A stretch of 64,000 nucleotides of DNA from an uncultured Alphaproteobacteria bacterium (lineage in GTDB: Bacteria > Pseudomonadota > Alphaproteobacteria > Rhizobiales > Rhizobiaceae), in assembly GCA_963841615.1 (NCBI GenBank), contig CAWJDI010000001.1, forward strand, positions 65,020-129,019, in the 5' to 3' direction. Of the stretch, positions 1 through 49,900 are shown piece by piece. Both the position numbers and the translations under genes were made by a program. The notes beneath the pieces are model-generated. The model searched no databases, was not told the origin of the DNA, and saw only the letters and a program-made list of their open reading frames with translations. Position 1 is the first letter of the stretch. Every line of letters starts with the position of its first letter.

Positions 1-1126
1 GATACGTGTCGCGGAAGTTCTGCACGTAGCGACCGGACAAAACGGCAGCGCCGGTGAGAACAGGCTCAATCGGGTTCTGCCCACCCTGCGCCGCGCTCTC
101 GTTGCGGCTGGTCGTGTTGCCAAGCGAGCGGCCAAGCAAGGCGATGTCGGCGAGTTGCAGGAACAACCCGGTCTCGCCAATCGTGTCAGCCAGATAAACG
201 GATGTGCCCGGTGTGATATCGCTGCCGGAGGAGCGCCGCACGTAGGACAGGCCTGCCGCGTCCAGCACCGCGCCCACTTCGTCGGCCCTTTGAGGATGGC
301 GGGGGGCGAGAATGGTCAGGGTGTCAGGTCTGTGTTCGGCCAACAAATTGTGGGTCTGGGCGACAACGCTTTCCTCATCCGCATGGGTGGACAGGGCCAG
401 CCATGAGGGCCGTCCGCCGATCTGCGCTTTGAGCCGCGCAGCCTCCTCCGCTTGGAAGACGGGCGGTGCGGCATCAAGTTTCAGATTGCCGACATCGACA
501 ACGCGCGGTGCGCCAAGGTGTCGGAAACGTTGTGCATCGAGCGAGGACTGCGCAGTGACGATGGCCAGTTTTCCGAAAATCCGCCGCGCCAGTTCCGGCC
601 GTTTGCGCCAGCGCTTGTCGGAACGGTCGGACATACGGGCGTTGACCAGAAATTGAGGTATCTGACGCGCGTGCAGTTCGGCAATCGTGGTCGGCCACAA
701 TTCGGATTCGGCAAAGATGGCGAGGTCCGGCTTCCAGTAGTCGATGAACCGCGCCACCGCCTTGGGCAGATCGAGCGGCACGTATTGGTGCAGCGTCATC
801 GGCCCGAGACGGCCTTTCAGCATCTCGGCCGATGTGACAGTTCCGGTGGTCACAACGAGATTAATGCCGCTCTCCTCAAGCCGTTTGACCAAGGGCAGTA
901 TCGCCAGCGATTCACCCACGCTGGCCGCGTGGAGCCAGATGACCGGGCCTTCCGGGCGAACGTAGCTGGCGTAGCCATAGCGCTCGTAGCGCCGCTCGCT
1001 GTCCTCCTTACCGCGCTTGGCGCGACGGCGCAGCAAGATGCCCGCGAACGGGTAAACCGCCGAGCCAAACAGGCGATAGGCGCGCAGGGCCGTCGCGGCG
1101 GCAAGGGATCGGGGCCAGCCGCTCAT
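1..1126 (-). CDS. Probable long minus-strand CDS running off the window start; product uncertain
   Basis: The long plus-strand ORF 452-1210 reads like an antisense shadow. The reverse complement of about 1126 downward gives MSGWPRSLAAATALRAYRLFGSAVYPFAGILLRRRAKRGKEDSERRYERYGYAS...GPVIWLHAASVGESLAILPLVKRLEESGINLVVTTGTVTSAEMLKGRLGPMTLHQYVPLDLPKAVARFIDYWKPDLAIFAESELWP. This matches the N-terminal domain of 3-deoxy-D-manno-octulosonic acid (Kdo) transferase (HAASVGE motif). The ORF is not in the supplied track; I translated it by hand. Confidence 0.75.
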   Translation of the reverse strand, partial: MSGWPRSLAAATALRAYRLFGSAVYPFAGILLRRRAKRGKEDSERRYERYGYASYVRPEGPVIWLHAASVGESLAILPLVKRLEESGINLVVTTGTVTSAEMLKGRLGPMTLHQYVPLDLPKAVARFIDYWKPDLAIFAESELWPTTIAELHARQIPQFLVNARMSDRSDKRWRKRPELARRIFGKLAIVTAQSSLDAQRFRHLGAPRVVDVGNLKLDAAPPVFQAEEAARLKAQIGGRPSWLALSTHADEESVVAQTHNLLAEHRPDTLTILAPRHPQRADEVGAVLDAAGLSYVRRSSGSDITPGTSVYLADTIGETGLFLQLADIALLGRSLGNTTSRNESAAQGGQNPIEPVLTGAAVLSGRYVQNFRDTY

Positions 1127-3727: not shown

Positions 3728-5521
3728 ATGGTCTTTGTGGAAGCCGTCGTTCTGTTGGGCGGCGCGACCATTGCCGCACCCCTGTTTAAGAAAATCGGCC
3801 TCGGCACAGTGTTGGGCTACCTGTTTCTCGGCCTGCTGCTTGGCCCTATCATGCAGTTCGTTGGGCGCGGCGAGGGGGAGGACGTGCTGCATGTGGCCGA
3901 ACTGGGCGTGGTGCTGCTGCTGTTCATCGTCGGGCTGGAGCTGAAACCCGCACGCCTTTGGGAAATGCGGACGGAAATCTTTGGATTGGGCGGTTCGCAG
4001 GTTCTGCTGTCCGGGCTGCTTATCGGAGCGTTGGCATGGTGGCTGCGGTTCGAATGGGCAGCTGCCCTTGCCGTCGGGTTCGGGCTTGCGCTTTCGTCCA
4101 CCGCATTCGCGTTGCAACTGATGGAGGAGCGCGGCGAAAGCGGCACGACCTACGGCAAGCGGGCATTCTCGATCCTGCTGTTTCAGGATCTCGCCATTGC
4201 GCCGCTTCTCATCGCCGTGCCTCTGCTGGCGGCTGGCAGCATGGAAATTACCGGCGCGGGCATGGTCCAGGTCGGCATAGCCGTCGCCTGCGTCGTGGCG
4301 CTCATCCTGATCGGGCGTTATGCACTGAACCCGCTGTTCAACATCATCGCCGACACCGGCGCGCGGGAAGCGATGATCGTGGCGGCTTTGTTCGTCGTCA
4401 TAGGCTCCGCCGTGCTGATGCAATTTGCCGGACTTTCCATGGCGATGGGGGCATTCATCGCCGGTGTCATGCTGGCGGAGTCGCGTTACCGGCACGAATT
4501 GGAGGCCGACATCGAGCCATTCCGTGGCGTGTTGCTGGGGCTGTTCTTCGTGGCTGTCGGGCTGTCGGTCGATCTCGGTGTGGTGCTGGAAAACTTCTGG
4601 CTCATCATCGCCGTTGTGCCGGTAACCATGATCGTGAAGGCGGTGGTTCTCTACTGGCTTTCGCGGGCTTTCGGCTCCGACCATAATGACGCGGCCCGCA
4701 TTTCCGGCGTGTTGCCGCAGCACGGCGAGTTCGGCTTCGTGCTGTTCACGGCGGCCACGTCGGCCGCGTTGCTGGACAGCGAAAACGCTTCCATCCTCAT
4801 CGCCTGCACGACCCTGTCCATGATGGCGACACCGCTGTCGGTTTTCATCTCGACCAAACTACAAACCGGATCCGGTGAAGCGGAACAGATGGACGAGGAT
4901 TTCGACGGCGCGGGTTCCGACGTGCTGATGATCGGCTTTTCCCGCATGGGGCAGATCACCTCGCAGGTGCTGCTGGCCGGCGGCAACGATGTGACCGTGC
5001 TGGACAATTCCGCCGACCGGATGCGGCAGGCGGAGCGGTTCGGGTTCCGCATCTATTTCGGCGACGGCACCCGCAAGGATGTGCTGCGCGCCGCCGGTAT
5101 AGAACGGGCCAAGCTGGTGGCCGTTTGCACCCAAGACAAAGACACGACGGACAAGATCGTCGATCTTATCCATCACGAATATCCGGACGTGCAGATCTAT
5201 GTTCGCAGCTACGACCGCGGTCATGCGCTGGAATTGCTGGCGCGGGAGCGGGTCTGGCAAATCCGCGAAACCTTCGAAAGCGCGCTCGTAATGGGCGGCG
5301 CGTTGCTTCAGGCGAGCGGATGCAGCGAAGAGGACGCCGCACGCATCGTCGCCGACGTTCGCAGGCGCGACAAGGATCGTCTCAACGAGCAGCTGAAGGA
5401 TGGCTTGACCGCAGGCCGCCAGCACCTCCACTTCGAGCCCGTGCCGGAACCGCTCGACAACGTCGAACGCCACGAACACCACGAGAAACCAGGCACCCAG
5501 CCCACGAAAGCCGCCAAATAG
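3728..5521 (+). CDS. Monovalent cation:proton antiporter-2 (KefB/KefC-type K+ efflux) with C-terminal KTN/TrkA-N domain
   Basis: Hydrophobic CPA2 domain ([43 protein letters not shown]) followed by a Rossmann-like domain ([23 protein letters not shown]). The start is placed at MVFVEAVV (3728) or slightly upstream. Confidence 0.85.
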
Positions 5522-11739: not shown

Positions 11740-11785
11740 ACACGCTCCCTAGCCCAAAGCGTTGGCGCTTGCGACAAGGTTTCCC

Positions 11786-12223
11786 ATGAGTTTCATGTCG
11801 ATCGCACTGGAAGAGGCCCGCGCCGCCGCCGCGCGCGATGAGGTGCCGGTGGGTGCCGTTCTCGTTCGCAACGGTGTGGTGATTGCCAGGGCCGGAAACC
11901 GTACGCGGGAATTGAATGACCCGACGGCCCACGCGGAAATCCTCGTCATACGTGCCGCCTGTGCTGAAGCGAACAGCCAGAGACTGCCGGGCTGCGATCT
12001 CTACGTCACGCTGGAACCCTGCACCATGTGCGCGGCGGCGATCTCATTTGCCCGTATCGAAAGACTGTATTTCGGTGCGGCGGATGAAAAGGGCGGCGCG
12101 GTCATCAACGGAGTGCGATTTTTCTCACACCCGCAGTGTTTGCATAGACCGGAAGTTTATGACGGTCTCGCCGAAGAAGAATCGCAAACCATCCTGCGAA
12201 GCTTCTTTCTCGGCAAGCGCTAA
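11786..12223 (+). CDS. tadA: tRNA adenosine deaminase TadA / nucleoside deaminase
   Basis: Motifs EVPVGAVLV, DPTAHAE and TLEPCTMCAAAI. Confidence 0.9.
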   Translation: MSFMSIALEEARAAAARDEVPVGAVLVRNGVVIARAGNRTRELNDPTAHAEILVIRAACAEANSQRLPGCDLYVTLEPCTMCAAAISFARIERLYFGAADEKGGAVINGVRFFSHPQCLHRPEVYDGLAEEESQTILRSFFLGKR

Positions 12224-12235
12224 TCAAACGCAGGT

Positions 12236-12847
12236 CTAAAAACCGGGGGCGTTGGAAGGATCGTTGGTCGTGGCCTTGCGCTCACGCCTCTCGCGTTCGC
12301 CAATTTCACCCACCGCCGCACTTTCTGCAGGTGTGCGATATTCAATCGGCGGGTCGGTAAGGTAACGCCGTGCGCCGGAACCTGTGGCTCCACGCGCCCG
12401 TTTGCGGGCTGCCAGAACACGTTCACGGGCGACTTTTTGCTTGCGAATATCGATACCGCCGTCTCGGTCCAGATCACCGATCAGTTCAGGCTTTGCGATG
12501 GCCGGGCGCTCGACACCCTCAACAGTGAGAGAACTGCCTTCAGCCGTGGTGTCAGCGCCCGCGAGAAGGGCAGCGCGCCGCTCTTCAGGATCGACAGGGA
12601 AAGAACCGTCGGCGGACGCGACATTGTCCACAGGTTGCGGCAGGACCGTTCCGTCCGGCGCGCGTACGAGGTCTGGGCGTGCGGAATAATTAATCTGCTC
12701 TTTCTTGTCGCGCGAACCCAGCGTTACGAGACCGGCAACGTCACTGAGCAACTGCGCTTCCTGAGTGACGCCCGTTCCATATGTATTGCCGCCGAGGCAC
12801 CCGGCGAGGCCGAGCAGGGAGGCGAGAGCGATGAGACGCAGATACAT
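12236..12847 (-). CDS. Hypothetical lipoprotein
   Basis: Lipobox-like LLGLAGC after a hydrophobic N-terminus; the rest is not recognised. Confidence 0.65.
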   Translation of the reverse strand: MYLRLIALASLLGLAGCLGGNTYGTGVTQEAQLLSDVAGLVTLGSRDKKEQINYSARPDLVRAPDGTVLPQPVDNVASADGSFPVDPEERRAALLAGADTTAEGSSLTVEGVERPAIAKPELIGDLDRDGGIDIRKQKVARERVLAARKRARGATGSGARRYLTDPPIEYRTPAESAAVGEIGERERRERKATTNDPSNAPGF

Positions 12848-13004
12848 GGCAGGCTAGTCCCCAGGGGCGCGAAAGGCCGATAATTCCGTTTCGGAACCAC
12901 CGATACCGAGCCTAAGCCACAGGATTGTGGCCTTAGCTTGGCTTGGAGCGCAGGTTAGACCCCGCGACCGCTGACTGCAATTCACATGAACCGACCGTTC
13001 CGAG

Positions 13005-16000
13005 TCAAGCGTTCCCGTCGATCTCGCGTATTGCAGCCGCATCGCGGGCCGAAAGGTCGGGATAATCCGCATCGCTGCCGACTTCCGGCAATACGCGCCA
13101 CGAACGTGCGCAGCGTGTGCCCTCGGCGTGCCCCATCACAACGGAAACGCCGGCGACTTCCGGCAGGCGGAAGTCTTCCGCGCCGCCGTCGCCTTGCTCA
13201 ATGGCTATCTGACTGACGATGCAGATGTCAGCCATGTCGAGGCCCTGCACAGCCTCGAACAGGGCAGAATCGCTGATGTGAACGCGGGGTGCAGCTTCCA
13301 GCGATGAGCCGATCAGCTTGTCACGCCGCGCGACTTCCAACGCACCCAGCACGACGCGCCGCACGGTGCGCACCTTCGCCCACTTCGCGGCCAGCGCATC
13401 GTCTCGCCAGGTGGAATCGACCAGCGCAAACTGTTGCAGATGCACGCTGTCGCTGTCCGGATAGCGTTCCGCCCATGTCTCTTCCATCGTAAACACGAGC
13501 ATGGGGGCCATCCATGTCACCACGCAATCGAACAGGTGCGAGACGACTTGCAACGATGCTTTGCGGCGCGTGGACGATGGTGCGTCGCAATACAGCGCGT
13601 CCTTGCGCACGTCGAAATAGAAGGCTGATAGTTCCGAGTTCATAAACCCGAACAACTTCGCCATCACGCCCTTATAATCGAACGCGTCGTAACCGGCCCG
13701 GATTTCCTTATCCAGCATGGCGAGACGATGCAGCATCAGCCGATCGATCTCCTCCATCTTGCTTACAGACACTTCATCGCCCTCGTAATGCGCCAGAGTG
13801 CCGAGCATCCAGCGCAGCGTGTTGCGGATCTTGCGGTAGGAATCGACCGCAGTCTTGATGATCTCCGGTCCGATGCGGGTGTCGTCCTGATAATCGACCG
13901 AGCAGGTCCACAGGCGCAGGATGTCGGCACCATATTGCTTGATGATGTCCTGCGGGGCGATGGTGTTGCCGAGCGACTTCGACATTTTGCGCCCGTCTTC
14001 GGCCATGACGAAACCGTGGGTCAGCACGGTGTCATAGGGCGCACGGCCACGGGTGCCGCAGCTTTCCAGCAGCGAGGAGTGGAACCAGCCGCGATGCTGG
14101 TCGGAGCCTTCGAGATACAGGTCGGCAGGCCATTTCAGGTCATCGCGCTGTTCCAGACAAAAGGCGTGGGTGGAGCCGGAATCGAACCACACATCGAGAA
14201 TATCGCGCACCTGTTCCCATGCGTCGATATCATCCACCAGCCCGTCGAGGAACCGCGCCTTTGCGCCGTCCTCATACCACGCGTCTGCACCTTCGGCCTT
14301 GAAGGCGTCCATGATGCGGGCGGTTAGGGCGTCGGACTGGTCAAAGTCCGGGCCGGGGATGACCTGGCCGGTTTCGGGGTTGCGGAACACACTGATCGGC
14401 ACGCCCCATGCCCGCTGGCGCGACAGCACCCAGTCGGGCCGGTCCGCGATCATGCCGCGCAGGCGGGTTTGGCCACGGGCGGGCACGAAGCGCGTGTCGT
14501 CGATGGCTTTTAGGGCGGTGGTGCGGAGGGTGCGGCTGGCTCCGTCATCCTCGGCCGACCTCACGACGGCGTCATCCTCGGCCACCGTGCCGAGGATCTC
14601 CCGATCGCTGTTCTCGCTGGACGTTTTGGAGGTCCTCGGGTCAGGGCCCGAGGATGACGGAGTTTGAGGCACAGCTCTGTCCATATGGACAAACCACTGC
14701 GGTGTGTTGCGGAATATGATGGGCTTTTTCGAGCGCCACGAATGGGGGTAGTCGTGTTTCAGCCGCCCGCGCGCGAACAGGTTGTTGGCCGCGATGAGCG
14801 CGGTGATGACACGCTGGTTGGCGTCGCCCTTCTTGCCCTTGTCGTCGATCACCCGCGCCGGATTGCCGGTGTCGGGGCCGAAACCGGGGGCGTCGTCGGT
14901 GTAGTAACCGGCGTCATCCACGGTGAAGGGAATGGTGGGATCGATGCCCTGCGCTTCCAGTTGGGCGCGCGAGGCGTTCCAAACCTCGAAGTCGTCCGCG
15001 CCATGGCCGGGGGCCGTGTGGACGAAGCCGGTGCCCGCGTCGTCGGTAACGTGGTCGCCCGCGAGGAGCGGGACGGCGAAGTCGTAGCCGAGGTGCTTGA
15101 GGGGGTGGTCGAGGACCATGCCGTCAAGCTCGGAGGCGGGAACATCGGCTAGGCGATTGAACGTCAGCTTTGCCTTTGTTGCGCACTCTTCCGCCAGCTT
15201 GTCGGCAAAGACGAACTTCGCGCCCGGTAGGGGTCCGAAATCATTTTCGGCAGTGGCGACTTCGTAAAGGCCGTAGGAGATAGATTTAGAGAACGAGACG
15301 GCGCGGTTGCCGGGCATCGTCCACGGTGTCGTGGTCCAGATGACGACTGAGGCATTTTTCAGCTTCTGCCCGTCATCCTCGGGCTCCGTCCCGAGGATCT
15401 GGCCGGTCTCTCCAGTCTCGGCGGTCCAGATCCTCGGGACGGAGCCCGAAGATGACGGCGTGTGAATTGGAAAGCCCACCCAAACCGTGTCGCTCTCATA
15501 CGTCTCGTATTCGATCTCCGCCTCGGCCAGCGCCGTGCGCTCCACCACGCTCCACATGATCGGCTTGGACCCGCGATAGAGCTGGCCAGACCGGGCGAAC
15601 TTCATCAGCTCGCCCGCGATGATCGCTTCAGCGGCAAAATTCATCGTCAGATACGGGTTGGCGAAATCTCCGACCACGCCTAACCGTTGAAATTCCTCGC
15701 TCTGCACTTCGACCCAACCGGCGGCGAAGTCGCGGCATTCCTTGCGGAATTCGTTGATCGGCACCTCGTCCTTGTTGCGGCCCTTGGCGCGGTATTGCTC
15801 CTCGATCTTCCATTCGATCGGCAGGCCGTGGCAGTCCCAACCCGGCACGTAATTGCTGTCGCGGTTTCGCATCTGGAACGAGCGGGTGACCACGTCCTTG
15901 AGTATCTTGTTGAGGCCGGTGCCCATATGGATGTTGCCGTTGGCGTAGGGCGGGCCGTCGTGCAGCACATATTTCTCGCGGCCTTTCGCGTCGTCGCGCA

Positions 16001-16157
16001 GGCGGCGATACATGTCCTGCTCCTGCCAGCGGGCGACGATTTCCGGCTCCTTCTTCGGCAGGCCGGCGCGCATGGGGAAGTCGGTTTTGGGCAGGAACAA
16101 CGTGCTGGAATAGTCGCGCTCGCCGGTTTCGGCTGCGCTTTCGGTCTTGTCGGACAT
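13005..16157 (-). CDS. ileS: Isoleucine--tRNA ligase, carrying apparent in-frame insertions
   Basis: Motifs [13 protein letters not shown] (HIGH-like, here HMGT), [58 protein letters not shown] and KMSKS. Confidence 0.97.
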
Positions 16158-16310
16158 GAAAAATCTCGTTTGGAAAAGGCGTCGTTTCAGGTGGCGGCGG
16201 ATAACCCGGCGCGGGACGATCAGCCCGCGACCGGGCCTATAATTCGTATGGTGCGGGAAACGATGCTCATTGCCGCTTCCTAGCGCGCGCCCATGCAGGC
16301 GGCAACAGGT

Positions 16311-17060
16311 TTAGAGACGCGGCTCGTTCAGCTTGTCGTAAAGGGCGCGGCGCAGCAGTTTCAACGTCAGGTTCGGTGCGAGCCATGCGGCTGCGCGCGC
16401 ACCGGTCCCGCCGGGGTAGAATTCAGCGACGGGCTTGCGGGTTTTGGCCAGTATCTTGGCTGCAAGATCGTTAGGTGCCATGCGTTTCTTCGCACTCGCA
16501 CCAGTTGGCGCGTAGCGTTCGGCATGGGTGGTGCGGATTGGACCGGGAAACACCGTCATCACGCGCACGCCCTTCTTCTTCCAGCCCTTGCGAACCGAGC
16601 GGGCATAGACTGCCAATCCATCCTTCGTGCCCGCATACACCGCCGCGCCGGGATAGCCGGTGACGTGGGAGAGCGACGAGATAAACGTGATGCACCCGCC
16701 CTGCTTTACCAGCCCCGCGCCCATGAGACCGGAAGCGAGCAGAATGGGGGCGGTCATGTTAACGTCGATCAGCGTCTTGTAGGCGCTGGCGGGAATGTCC
16801 TCGAAATGCCCCGTGGCGCTGATGCCCGCGTTCAGCACGACCAGATCGAACGTCATGCCGTGTAGCGAGGCAATGCAGCGCGCCACCGCCTGCCGGTCGG
16901 CCAGATCGACCTTGCGGACGATGCACGCGCCACGGCTGGAGAGCGCCAGCGCTTCGAGATCGTTCGTGTCTCGATCCAGCGCCACAACCTCGTGCCCGTC
17001 TGCCAGCAGTGCATCGGTGAGCGCGCGGCCCAGACCTGCGGCGGCACCTGTTATCAACGC
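16311..17060 (-). CDS. SDR family oxidoreductase
   Basis: Motifs ITGAAAGLG, VVLNAG and YAGTK. The start probably lies near 17066 (VRALITG). Confidence 0.8.
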   Translation of the reverse strand, partial: ALITGAAAGLGRALTDALLADGHEVVALDRDTNDLEALALSSRGACIVRKVDLADRQAVARCIASLHGMTFDLVVLNAGISATGHFEDIPASAYKTLIDVNMTAPILLASGLMGAGLVKQGGCITFISSLSHVTGYPGAAVYAGTKDGLAVYARSVRKGWKKKGVRVMTVFPGPIRTTHAERYAPTGASAKKRMAPNDLAAKILAKTRKPVAEFYPGGTGARAAAWLAPNLTLKLLRRALYDKLNEPRL

Positions 17061-17062
17061 CC

Positions 17063-17794
17063 TCACAACACGCCTTCTTTCGGGCGGGCGAAGGCGGCGC
17101 GGGTGCAATAGAAACGGCCCAGCTTGCGGGTCTTGTCACCGTTGCGGATGGCTTTCTCAATGCCTGCCGACGCGCGGTGGGGGGCCATGAACAGGCTGCG
17201 CGACGCGCCGAGTGTCATGCCCGCCTTGTCGTGCATGCCGGTTTTCGTCGGGCCGGGATGAACCACGGTGACATGTGCCTTACCCCGCCATTCTTCTCGC
17301 AAGGATTTGGCAAAGCCGGCCAGAGCGCCCTTCGTCGCGGCGTAGGTCGCAAACCCTTCCGCTCCGCCTGCCAGGCTGGAGCCGATGATCGTCAACCGCC
17401 CGCCCGCGTTAAGCAGCGCCGGTGCGGCGGCATTGGCGGCCAGCACCGTGCCGGTGACATTAATGTCTATCTGCGCGGCGATGGAGACCGGTGTCTCCGC
17501 TTCCGCCACGCCCTGCCAGCCGATTCCGGCGTTGAGTATGGCCACGTCCAGCACGTCCCAGTCCATCTGTTCCAATGCACGGGATATAGCGGCACCGGCC
17601 CGCGCAGGGTCGGACTGGTCGGCGCGGATGTAGTGGATGTTGTCGCTGGCGAAGAACTCGGCCTGATCGACCAGATTGCGACGGCCGGTCGCCAGAACGC
17701 CTATACCGCGCGCCGCGTAGGATTTCGCCAGCAACAGCCCGATACCGTCCGTCGCGCCGGTAATCAGAACGCGGGTCCGGCGGTCGGCTGCCAT
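17063..17794 (-). CDS. SDR family oxidoreductase
   Basis: Motifs LITGATDGIG, ILNAG, YAATK and VVHPGPTKT. Confidence 0.8.
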   Translation of the reverse strand: MAADRRTRVLITGATDGIGLLLAKSYAARGIGVLATGRRNLVDQAEFFASDNIHYIRADQSDPARAGAAISRALEQMDWDVLDVAILNAGIGWQGVAEAETPVSIAAQIDINVTGTVLAANAAAPALLNAGGRLTIIGSSLAGGAEGFATYAATKGALAGFAKSLREEWRGKAHVTVVHPGPTKTGMHDKAGMTLGASRSLFMAPHRASAGIEKAIRNGDKTRKLGRFYCTRAAFARPKEGVL

Positions 17795-18780
17795 TATCGG
17801 TGCCCGTCGAAGGCGATGGCCCGATCGAGCGCGGAATGCGGTTCGGCCTTGGCCAAGATGGCACGGGCGGCGGCACTGTCGCGGTCCATCTGCTTCACCA
17901 GCGCCTCGGCACTGTCGAACTTCTCCTCACCGCGCAGGTGGGCGAAGAGCGTCACTTCGATCTCTTCTCCGTAGAGGTCTCCATCGAAATCGAACACGAA
18001 TGTTTCCAGCAGCGGCGCGCCGTTGTCGAAGGTCGGGCGGCGCCCATAGCTGGCGACGCCGTCGTGCAGCGATCCATCTGCGCGGCGCAGGCGCACGGCA
18101 TAAATGCCGTGGGCGAGGCGGCAATTGTCGGCGAGCGACAGATTGGCGGTCGGGTAGCCCAGCGTGCGCCCCAGCTGCGCGCCCTTTACCACCGTGCCGC
18201 CCACGCACCAGCGATAGCCCAGCAGGCGAGCAGCGTGGTCCACGTCACCTTCGCCCAGCAGGCGGCGGATGCGCGAGGACGACAATTCCTCGCCCGCACC
18301 GTCACGGTATTCCTCGACGATGGTCACACCGAAACCGGCGCGTCCGCCCGCCTCGCGCAGAAAATCCGGCGTGCCCTCGCGCTTGCGCCCGAACATGAAG
18401 TTAAAGCCCGTCACGACATGGCTTGCGCCGGTCGCTTCCACCAGATGACGGTCGACAAAGTCCTGCGCCGAGGTGCCTGCCAGATCGCGGGTGAACGGGA
18501 GGACGAGCAGTCCGTCAACGCCTGCCGCTTGGACGATCCGCGCTTTCATATCCCGCGGGGTCAGGCGGAAGACGGGGCTGTCCGGTTTGAACAGGGTGCG
18601 CGGGTGCGGCTCGAACGACAGGGCGAAAACCTTGGTTCCGGTCTCGCGCCCGATTGCCAATGCCGCATTCAGCACTGTCTGATGGCCGCGATGGACGCCG
18701 TCGAAATTACCGATGGCGATCACCGCGCCGCGCATGGCGTCCGGCAACGGCTTATCGAGAATGCGGGCGGCGGCACTCAT
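17794..18780 (-). CDS. ribF: Bifunctional riboflavin kinase/FAD synthetase
   Basis: Motifs IGNFDGVHRGH, SSSRIR, GRTLGYPTAN and LRGEEKF. Confidence 0.95.
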   Translation of the reverse strand: MSAAARILDKPLPDAMRGAVIAIGNFDGVHRGHQTVLNAALAIGRETGTKVFALSFEPHPRTLFKPDSPVFRLTPRDMKARIVQAAGVDGLLVLPFTRDLAGTSAQDFVDRHLVEATGASHVVTGFNFMFGRKREGTPDFLREAGGRAGFGVTIVEEYRDGAGEELSSSRIRRLLGEGDVDHAARLLGYRWCVGGTVVKGAQLGRTLGYPTANLSLADNCRLAHGIYAVRLRRADGSLHDGVASYGRRPTFDNGAPLLETFVFDFDGDLYGEEIEVTLFAHLRGEEKFDSAEALVKQMDRDSAAARAILAKAEPHSALDRAIAFDGHR

Positions 18781-46904: not shown

Positions 46905-49900
46905 GTGAGTACGCGTATGTCCCGCCCAACCTATTCGTATCTGGATCTGACCGTCCTGGACGGGGTGCGGGAGCATCTCATTTCGGGCAGCGCCGCCATC
47001 GTGTTCGCGGACGGGTTGTCCGACATTGTATGGTCGAACGCCGAAGGCGTATCGCTGATCGGCGCGGACAATGTGCGGCAAGCCATCGACGGCGATTTGC
47101 AGATCAACGCCGCCATGCGCCGCCAGATGGCCAGCGCGCTGGCACAGTTGGGCGACAAGGACGGGCCGGTCGGCGCGGTGATGCGCTTGCGCCGTGGGTT
47201 TAAGAGCGGGCTGGTCGGTTTCACCCTGCGCGCGGTCCCCTTGCCTGATGGGGAACGCGGACTTTTGCTGCTGAGCGAACCGCTGCGCGGACGCCGCGAC
47301 CGTGAAGCCGCACAGGCGCAACGCATGGTCGACAGCCTCGACGGGCGCGGCCATTCCTCCGCAATCCTGCTCGATGACGGGCGGGTGGTGGCCGCATCTC
47401 CATCGTTCGACGCGCTTGATATTTCCGACGACGTGCTGCGCGCTTTATGCGCCCAAACGGCAAGTGAAGCGGACCGGCTCGTCAAACGCGCCGTCGCAAC
47501 AGCCAAGGGCGCACTGCCCGGTGGCATGGCGCGGATTGCGGATGCGCCGGGACGGTTTCTTCTCATCATGGCGGGAACGGAAGAGCCGGACGAGGACGGC
47601 ACCGACGATACTGTGTTGCTCGATACGCCGGACAGCGTGGATGGTTCGGCTGACTTGGCCGAGGTTGAAGCCGTCGAGGAAGCGCCCGCCGCCCCACGGG
47701 TCGGCGCGTTCTCGAACCGCAGGTCGGGCGGCACGCTGTCTCGCTGGTATTTCAAGGCACCCAAGCCGGAGCCGTCTGACGATGTAGAACCTGCGACGGA
47801 GGACGTGGCGGATATTGTTTCCGACAAGGAGCCGGAGGACGACAGCGCCGCGCCCTCCATTACCACCGCGATCATCGCCGGTGCTGTGGCGACCGGGGCC
47901 GCCGTCGCCGCTGCGGTGAGTGTTACCCGCTCGAAATCACCGGCTGTCGAGCCCGCGCCGATGGCGTGGAGCAGTGACGATGATGATGCTGTGGAAGTGC
48001 CAACAGAGATTGAGACGACTGTCGCTGCGACCTCTACGGATGAGGATAAGGAAACGACTGAAACAGACAGTGGCGAGCCGGATGCGGATGCCGTGCCTGG
48101 TTATAAAGACGACCAGGAGGACGACGCAGGCACCATCGAGCCGGACGCGCTTGATGAAGCCGAGCCGGTCGACTTCTTCTGAAAACGCACAGCCGCGCTT
48201 CCAATTCATGCCTTCGAAGAAGGCGATCCGGTTCGCGTGGGAAACCGATGCGGACAATATAATTGTGTCCATGGGGCGGGAAATAAGCATAGCCCTCGGT
48301 ACAGATGCGGAAGCCATGGCCGGGCGGACATGGACAGATGCCGCTACTGCGCTCGATCTCGATGGCGGCACGGATATCGACCCGCTGTTGAACCGGCGCG
48401 ACACCTGGTCCGGTCGCACGGTGCTTTGGCCCGCGGCGGATGGAGGCGCGGTCGTCCCCGTCGATCTTGCTGGCCTGCCGGCCTATGACCGGGACCGCAA
48501 TTTCAAAGGTTTCAACGGGTTCGGTATCATTCGCATGGCGGATGCCCAGGCAGGTGCCACACTTGGAACCGAGGTTCCCGTCGACACCGTGGAAGCGGAA
48601 ACCGACCGGAGCCGCACTCTTTCGCAGCAGGACCGAAAGGTGTTCGACGAGATCGGCACTCGCTTGACCGACGAACGGGCTGGAAGCGCGGAGACGGAGG
48701 TTTCAACCGTAACGATAGCAACAGCTGCGGCGGTAGAGCCCGGTGACGAGGCTGTGGTTGTCGCGGACAATGGTGCGCGGGAGACACTGGTTGAGTCCGA
48801 TTCTTCGACTGGCACATTGGCTAGTGGTCCAACTGATGAAGGCGAACCAATCGAGGCGGCAACAGTAAAACTGTCTTCGCAGGTTGAAGAAGTCGAAGAG
48901 ACGAAACTCGCCATCAACAAAGAAGAAGCGACTATCGCCTATTTGCCGTCCGCCTTCGTGAAACGGGCAGGACGGGAGGACTTGGAAGGTGCGGTTGAAG
49001 ACGTTTCCGACACTGATGAGGACGCTGGGTCCAATGTCAAGCGATGAACCGGATCAGCGCGAAGCGGATACTGCCCCATACATCGGCAGCACCGAGGATT
49101 TTCCGGTGGACAGCTCAAACGACGACGACGACGCAGCGTCAATCGTGTCTCCGGAAGATGATGACACCATCGCGCAACCTGCGGCGTCCCTGCCGACTGC
49201 CTCTGATCTAGCCGACACCGATCCGACACCGGACGACACCGACGACCGCCCGCGCCCGGAAGTGCCGGAGCACACGGTCGACACGTCTATTCTCGCACGC
49301 TTGCCGATTCCGCTGCTCGTCTATCGTGACCACGAATTGCTGTTCGCCAATTCCGATTTCTACAATCTCACCGGCTACGCATCGCTGACCGATTTTGCAG
49401 AGGCCGGTGGGGTGGAGCGATTGTTCGGCGCGACAGACGACCTGCAGCGCAAGGGACCGGGCGCGCCGATCTATCACCGCAACGGCGAGCGGCTGGACGT
49501 GCGCGCGCACCTGCAGCACGTGCCGTGGGATACAGCACGCGCCATGCTACTAACGCTGCGCCCGGGCGGTGGAGGCGATGGGCGCCGCAGCACGCCCGAG
49601 CCCGACCTGCCGAACGATGCGGGCAATATCGTCAGCTTCAAGTCTGGAAAATCCGAACGCAACGACGGATCGACCGACTCCTTTGGCGGTGTCGGCGTCG
49701 ATGATCTGCGCGCCGTGCTCGACACGGCGTCGGACGGCGTGATTATCCTGACGGCAAACGGCGAGGTCCGCGCTGCCAGCCGATCCGCTGAAGCGTTACT
49801 CGACCGCCCATCGTCCGACATGGCGGGCCGTGATCTGGCAGACTTTCTCGCGCCGGAAAGCCGCGACAAGCTGGCCGATTATCTGGCCGGTATTAGCGGT

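Follow-up and report, generated by a model that had tools for sequence, protein, structure and literature searches.

What palindromic repeats are doing inside the gene of an essential enzyme, and how they came to lie there, is the question raised by a stretch of 64,000 nucleotides of contig CAWJDI010000001.1 from an uncultured alphaproteobacterium (below, "the window" is this whole 64-kb stretch). The gene is ileS, which encodes isoleucyl-tRNA synthetase (IleRS), and a first-pass annotation of the DNA had proposed that three copies of one palindromic repeat are inserted in it in frame. It is highly probable that two copies of a non-autonomous palindromic element of about 90 nt have inserted in frame in ileS and are translated, the element being a dimer of the kind described as CGTC-tagged repetitive extragenic palindromes (REPs) and as Ssn-related motif (SRM) hairpins. 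With the same high probability, as a part of this reading, both copies sit in variable loops of the protein surface, one of which lies where the chain enters the CP1 editing domain and the other just after it. The two elements are called A and B here, and the features of the gene that the argument needs are as follows, L121 being the contig of a close relative introduced below.

13005..16157, minus strand: ileS (isoleucyl-tRNA synthetase), an intact open reading frame (ORF) of 1050 amino acids (aa).
15371..15457, minus strand: REP dimer A, with outward CGTC tags and a tag-to-tag length of 87 nt, encoding aa 234-263 (30 aa).
15371..15402, plus strand: unit A, plus-strand copy, CGTC-ATCCTCGGG-CTCCGT-CCCGAGGAT-CTGG, from the CGTC-hairpin scan, fitting the published SRM motif.
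15403..15425, no strand: spacer of dimer A, strongly diverged (46% identity to L121, with a 3-nt indel).
15426..15457, minus strand: unit A, minus-strand copy, CGTC-ATCTTCGGG-CTCCGT-CCCGAGGAT-CTGG, from the CGTC-hairpin scan, with an SRM match.
14570..14659, minus strand: REP dimer B, with a tag-to-tag length of 90 nt, encoding aa 499-529 (31 aa).
14570..14601, plus strand: unit B, plus-strand copy, CGTC-ATCCTCGGC-CACCGT-GCCGAGGAT-CTCC, from the CGTC-hairpin scan, without an SRM match.
14628..14659, minus strand: unit B, minus-strand copy, CGTC-ATCCTCGGG-CCCTGA-CCCGAGGAC-CTCC, from the CGTC-hairpin scan, with an SRM match.
14542..14568, minus strand: additional half unit directly next to dimer B, made up of CCGTCATCCTCGG and a degenerate rest and encoding ...VVRSAEDDG; these 27 nt are missing from L121.

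Each arm of the two elements is a small hairpin of its own, composed of the CGTC tag, ATCCTCGGG, a 6-nt loop, CCCGAGGAT and a CTG or CTC tail. The stems are 9 bp long, start with AT and contain 0-1 mismatch per unit, and all four full units start with CGTC. Since every arm is an asymmetrically tagged hairpin, each element is an inverted pair of units with the CGTC tags directed outward. The arms of element A are 33 nt long (15370-15402 and 15426-15458), 97% complementary and separated by 23 nt; those of element B are 32 nt long (14570-14601 and 14628-14659), 81% complementary and separated by 26 nt. Dimer B is a heterodimer with non-complementary loops. Folding of the mRNA gave energies of -80.3 kcal/mol for A (z -11.3) and -51.9 kcal/mol for B (z -4.9), and A folds as single-stranded DNA (ssDNA) at -46 to -47 kcal/mol on either strand. 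By translation, five of the six reading frames of the unit are open. In a comparison with miniature inverted-repeat transposable elements, the inverted ends are present, and on reading the sequence no direct repeat was seen to flank A or B. An Rfam scan of ileS gave no real family, only sub-threshold look-alikes of miRNA precursor hairpins.

The repeats are concentrated in this gene. With no more than one mismatch, CCGTCATCCTCGG occurs five times in the window, always in ileS (0.19 expected; 0 of 100 shuffles reach 5), and CCTCGG-N8-CCGAGGAT with up to two mismatches has nine matches there, all at 14547-15453 (0.86 expected). A whole-window scan for long local inverted repeats returned only A and B, besides two short overlapping palindromes. 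The latter are located at 14669-14700, where one adjoins B, and at 49492-49517. Both the complementarity of the arms and the motif counts place the palindromic repeats in ileS as first noted, and two of the three insertions claimed, A and B, stand. The third, a copy recognised by its EDD motif, was rejected as an independent insertion, as it is the 27-nt half unit that adjoins B and is absent from L121. This half unit also begins with CGTC, and 15 nt at its end show 100% complementarity to the far end of B; it could be a local duplication, or a remnant that was deleted in L121.

Whether the two segments are insertions or a native part of the enzyme was judged from orthologues and structures. 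Both segments are present in only one of 120 IleRS orthologues, P0001 (1047 aa, 90% identical), all the others being at most 71% identical to the window protein, and no window-type insert peptide was found as native sequence in distant orthologues among these 120 and a further 80 sequences. The phmmer alignments to solved IleRS chains in the Protein Data Bank (PDB) break at query positions 231/268 and 491/543, and chain 8c9e has about 9 and 2 residues at the two break points. In an AlphaFold2 model, which was made from a shallow alignment of 36 sequences and has a mean predicted local distance difference test score (pLDDT) of 71, residues 237-261 and 500-540 are coil with pLDDT <50, and the first of these coils is flanked by confident strands (218-233 and 269-275). 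The peptide of dimer A directly precedes the WTTTPWT editing motif, and that of dimer B comes directly after the PQWFVHMD segment. In the known architecture of IleRS, the first site precedes the Thr-rich editing motif of CP1, WTTTPWT, by a few residues, and the second follows directly on the YPHSWR...PQWF segment, with which CP1 closes. The proposal that the segments are insertions and that they occupy loops was thus upheld.

The orthologue alignment shows both loops to be variable in length across the IleRS family, and this could be taken to mean that the segments are native, lineage-specific loop expansions, or even an assembly artefact, with a coincidental likeness to repeats. Such an explanation has next to no probability. 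A complete scan found the exact 24-nt core of unit A at 38 unrelated loci of other genera, which are mostly intergenic and mostly belong to Aurantimonadaceae-like genera, the motif counts in the window are far above chance expectation, and the elements occur in two independent assemblies with diverged spacers.

The second of these assemblies is L121, a 182-kb metagenomic contig that encodes P0001 and is syntenic with the window. In a pairwise gene alignment, elements A and B take the same positions in its ileS. The shared sites, together with the absence of the elements from orthologues of 71% identity or less, indicate that the insertions predate the split from L121 and postdate the deeper split. 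The four dimers (A and B of both lineages) can be aligned from end to end, the ends of the spacers included, with a mean column identity of 84%, which indicates that one element of about 90 nt has been copied twice and that the dimer is the copied unit. A and B share the codon phase; from tag to tag, one of the four dimers measures 87 nt and the other three 90 nt, and within the elements and near them the genes of the window and L121 differ by indels of 3, 15 and 27 nt, all multiples of three. These lengths and frame-keeping indels point to selection to keep the frame and therefore to translation of the elements, as the first-pass annotation had assumed. A protein-database search with a 47-aa repeat-encoded query yielded no candidate.

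The rates of change within the dimers differ from part to part. The comparison comprises two lineages, the window and L121, and four dimers:

Four-fold degenerate sites of ileS outside the elements: 162/475 differ, 65.9% identity, used as the reference rate.
Tags and stems of the four units: 4/88 differ, 95.5% identity, P about 2e-11 against the four-fold rate.
Third codon positions in tags and stems: 2/28 differ, 92.9% identity, P about 0.001 against the four-fold rate.
Loops of the four units: 7/24 differ, 70.8% identity.
Spacers: about 19/50 differ, about 62% identity.

The loops and spacers evolve at about the neutral rate. The conservation of tags and stems, which extends to third positions, indicates that the nucleic acid, not the peptide, is what constraint or homogenisation acts upon. 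One change in the loop of dimer A is mirrored in the partner unit. The long hairpin is found in both lineages (-80.3 and -68 kcal/mol), and dimer B of L121 folds moderately better than shuffled sequences (z -2.7). Between the ileS genes of the window and L121, identity is 96.6% at codon positions 1+2 but 65.9% at four-fold sites, which indicates strong purifying selection on the gene.

Such a pattern recalls another explanation, according to which the elements are maintained as nucleic-acid elements, either as binding and cleavage sites of the Ssn nucleases discussed below, limiting the recombinational replacement of ileS, or as a stable mRNA hairpin that sets IleRS expression by a ribosome pause or as an RNase III target. 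It would account for the four differences in 88 tag and stem positions where four-fold sites differ at 34%, for the conserved third positions, for the compensated loop change in dimer A and for the retention of the long hairpin in both lineages; moreover, when transforming DNA in Neisseria contains such repeats, Ssn modulates its integration (PMC11893778). However, the basis for it is two lineages with four dimers, and gene conversion by other genomic copies or hairpin-templated repair could conserve the stems as well; from two lineages, these processes and selection are not separable. Besides, dimer B lacks complementarity between its loops and in L121 reaches a z of only -2.7, no ssn gene was found in the 64-kb window, and the other IleRS orthologues do without the elements. 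We consider a nucleic-acid role of this kind unlikely, and regard the two elements as in-frame copies of a translated palindromic repeat.

Palindromic inserts in IleRS are not limited to these two lineages. At least four unrelated palindromic families have entered the same IleRS loops independently. The inserts in other Alphaproteobacteria include CGTC-type units (L143 from Rhodoplanes, and L159), GTAG-type units (L161, L171) and a CCCCTC...GAGGGG family encoding SPL.GE...GGG peptides (L125, L137, L152, L160, L190). Numbered by the query protein, the in-frame palindromic sites in other IleRS lie at aa ~234-260, at ~499-536, at a third place near ~356 and at one further place near ~798, and the fold energies of these inserts are about -46 to -104 kcal/mol. 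The IleRS of Tianweitania populi (L125) has two copies of one family. The recurrence of unrelated inserts fits permissive loops that would filter random insertions, and a target preference for the IleRS loops may also exist. The broader claim that the dimers are under sequence-level selection in an essential gene, with candidate roles as Ssn recognition sites that would shield ileS against replacement by incoming DNA or modulate it otherwise, or as an mRNA hairpin of extreme stability (-80 kcal/mol) that would tune IleRS synthesis, and that the IleRS loops are a recurrent landing pad for several repeat families is, taken as a whole, unlikely.

The inserted peptides might also have been co-opted as functional IleRS loops, in binding of tRNA or a partner or in modulation of editing, with the palindrome as a historical footprint. 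The inserts adjoin the editing domain, the motifs SSSG..PR and ILG..ED(D) are present in all four copies, and the frame has been retained through several indels. On the other side, the conservation of synonymous third positions argues for a constraint on DNA or RNA, the middle of the peptide, which the spacer encodes, varies freely, the model predicts disorder, and unrelated repeats with unrelated peptides in the same loops elsewhere argue for permissive sites. Co-option thus appears very improbable, and the inserted peptides would lengthen the loops as disordered, tolerated stretches that add no function.

The first-pass annotation had likened the repeats to dispersed palindromes of Rhizobiales and other alphaproteobacteria, and further copies do exist in relatives. 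An exact scan for GTCATCCTCGG-N8-CCGAGGAT, covering one genome per species, gave at least 120 loci, almost all in Hyphomicrobiales and other Alphaproteobacteria; among the matches listed are the genera Hoeflea, Nitratireductor, Aurantimonas, Fulvimarina, Jiella, Rhizobium, Ensifer and Shinella. In these genomes, units stand alone or pair up with outward tags into dimers of 88-155 bp, and their tail is in most cases CCA. None of the best 10 of 24 long-ORF candidates (193 units) proved to be a truly intragenic copy, and in these 10 no Pfam domain spans the repeat; in the long-ORF candidates, the HisRS and DUF559 domains begin downstream of it. Family units are located just upstream of hisS or of a DUF559 gene in two relatives (L094:1441-3627 and L213:1912-3318), where they sit in stop-free in-frame leaders and could be mis-annotated as N-terminal extensions.

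Such repeats have been described before. The CGTC-tagged REP superfamily was defined by Di Nocera, De Gregorio and Rocco (2013, BMC Genomics 14:522, PMC3733652) and predominates in Alphaproteobacteria. Its members have an unpaired terminal CGTC (TGTC and CCTC variants are allowed), a stem of 8-9 bp beginning with A, T, a loop of 4-5 nt and a 3-nt tail with the consensus CCA, and families with other loop lengths are also listed (PMC3733652). Many of them form dispersed, mostly intergenic inverted dimers with spacers of 20-100 bp, for which one long hairpin is possible; occasional in-frame intragenic copies encode 20-30 aa, sometimes two per gene, tRNA synthetases included (PMC3733652). In the IleRS of Erythrobacter litoralis (ELI_13550), a CGTC-1 dimer occupies aa 467-488 of 965 (PMC3733652, Additional file 3), and this site, allowing for the upstream insert, is the same hot spot as that of element B.

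An enzyme that may act on these units is also known. The Ssn family consists of single-domain GIY-YIG (cd10448-type) nucleases that bind NTS/SRM hairpins and cut ssDNA just upstream in a strand-specific manner, with neither binding nor cutting of double-stranded DNA or RNA (Chenal et al. 2025, Nat Commun 16:2388, PMC11893778). The ssn genes are typically flanked by the motif in a layout resembling an insertion sequence (IS), NTS-ssnA-NTS (PMC11893778). The published NTSvar, CGTCATACTCGGG-N5-CCCGAGTATC, is nearly the same sequence as the ileS unit (PMC11893778), and the SRM pattern HGTCWYN(0-2)YYVSBRHN(0-5)WNVSBRGN(0-2)RNCYNB fits three of the four ileS units and has no match elsewhere in the 64 kb, where about 0.6 would be expected by chance. 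An intragenic position is rare for NTS copies (2% in N. meningitidis; PMC11893778), whereas the four full ileS units are all found within one essential gene. In related genomes, genes for GIY-YIG proteins of ~100-130 aa were found between outward-tagged CGTC units, REP(+)...REP(-), and the bracketed ORFs were typed by the Pfam GIY-YIG domain alone (PF01541, E 1e-13 to 1e-17):

L223:572-981: GIY-YIG gene between units 572-599(+) and 954-981(-).
L220:3909-4378: GIY-YIG gene between units 3909-3936(+) and 4351-4378(-).
L110:1642-2074: GIY-YIG gene between outward-tagged units.
L059:6598-6982: GIY-YIG gene between outward-tagged units.
L062:1609-2084: GIY-YIG gene between outward-tagged units.
L052:330-876: GIY-YIG gene whose flanking units have another stem, ATCCCTGTG, with a CCTCGG-type unit nested inside.

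As far as sequence can tell, the relatives reproduce for Hyphomicrobiales the published SRM-ssn-SRM architecture. The unit-flanked GIY-YIG gene was considered as a new REPtron-like system, and this was rejected, as it is already published as the Ssn family (PMC11893778).

Because in related genomes two units of this very sequence, tags outward, bracket a GIY-YIG gene, mobilisation by an Ssn nuclease may be proposed for the ileS elements. The element would move via single-stranded hairpin DNA, with the cognate nuclease encoded elsewhere or formerly present. As the gene is essential, the insertions that survive would be those that are a multiple of three in length, free of stops and placed in a permissive loop.

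Several points weigh against this picture of mobile elements inserted in ileS. Nucleotide-exact boundaries of the insertions are lacking, since no empty-site allele is close enough, and the loop of the ileS units has 6 nt against 4-5 in the published CGTC REP tables. The conservation of tags and stems is unexpected for purely neutral, tolerated junk. Neither other CGTC/SRM units nor an ssn homologue were found in the 64-kb window or in 23 kb of L121 (1-23144); all eight units of the two lineages lie inside ileS, and two dimers in one gene with none elsewhere in these 64 kb and 23 kb are an unusual concentration. Transposition by Ssn has been demonstrated by nobody, and the publication on these nucleases notes the IS-like architecture only (PMC11893778). 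Homology of the dimers to the ssn-bearing element extends no more than ~6 nt beyond the units, which indicates that the dimers are not simple deletion derivatives of it; an origin of the REP dimers as internal-deletion derivatives was rejected for this reason.

The gene itself was identified by homologues with the Pfam domains tRNA-synt_1 and Anticodon_1, by matches to solved IleRS structures in the PDB at E 2e-204 and by the KMSKS motif of IleRS at aa 724. The class I HIGH signature has the form HMGT followed by G in the window IleRS (aa 77-80; 15918-15929) and in its 90% identical relative; the remaining 119 close orthologues all read HIGH with A as the next residue, and HIGT was found in 4 of 80 more distant alphaproteobacterial sequences. 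The HMGT variant notwithstanding, ileS is under strong purifying selection. The gene order at 11762-18780 is ribF (FAD synthetase), two short-chain dehydrogenases, ileS, a 203-aa protein without domains and a tadA-like deaminase; lspA is absent after ileS in this interval, and the order around ileS in L121 is that of the window.

The kind of element, its relation to Rickettsia repeats, the in-frame occurrence in tRNA synthetases, including IleRS at this place, and the likely enzyme are already published. What the locus offers is a clear-cut case of palindromic selfish DNA that is translated in a free-living lineage of Hyphomicrobiales, most earlier examples being from Rickettsia and a few other genomes. 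It may serve as a natural test bed for how two perfect or near-perfect hairpins of ~33 bp are compatible with an essential gene being transcribed, translated and replicated. It also raises the questions of why the stems of the repeats are conserved far above the synonymous rate, which is weightier now that cognate GIY-YIG Ssn nucleases are known, and of why the same three IleRS loops were struck independently by CGTC, GTAG and other palindromic families. For annotation, it means that such segments are not to be read as novel IleRS domains.

Among the known systems, the ileS units resemble the CGTC REPs in the CGTC tag, the 9-bp stem starting with AT, the short tail and the arrangement in outward-tagged inverted dimers, and another trait of CGTC REPs, the presence of many dispersed inverted dimers, is seen in relatives of the window organism. 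They differ from the listed intragenic CGTC REPs in the stem, ATCCTCGGG, and in the host lineage, and their tail is CTG or CTC where the CGTC REP consensus is CCA, as it also is in most copies from related genomes. The nearest group is probably CGTC-3-like, which is a candidate assignment only, as the CGTC-3 consensus was published as a figure.

The Rickettsia palindromic elements (RPEs) are reportedly palindromic selfish DNA that lies in frame in housekeeping genes, is translated and is usually exposed on the protein surface. RPE-1 is the classic coding element of 100-150 bp. The ileS elements resemble RPEs in lying in frame in a protein-coding gene with the reading frame kept; the hosts of RPEs are AT-rich obligate intracellular bacteria, whereas the ileS host is free-living, Hyphomicrobiales-like and GC-rich (about 62%). 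The Rickettsia precedent invoked by the first-pass annotation is closer than was supposed, since RPE-4 (CGTC-4) and RPE-6 (CGTC-1) belong to the same CGTC superfamily (PMC3733652); the link is made through this published class of the two RPEs and not through a comparison of RPE sequences.

With the GTAG REPs and the bacterial interspersed mosaic elements, which are mobilised by RAYT tyrosine transposases, the ileS elements and their relatives share short hairpins, an asymmetric 4-nt tag, inverted dimers and an enzyme gene flanked by repeats. Unlike in that system, the tag is CGTC, and the flanked gene of the relatives encodes a GIY-YIG nuclease instead of an IS200/IS605-type Y1 transposase.

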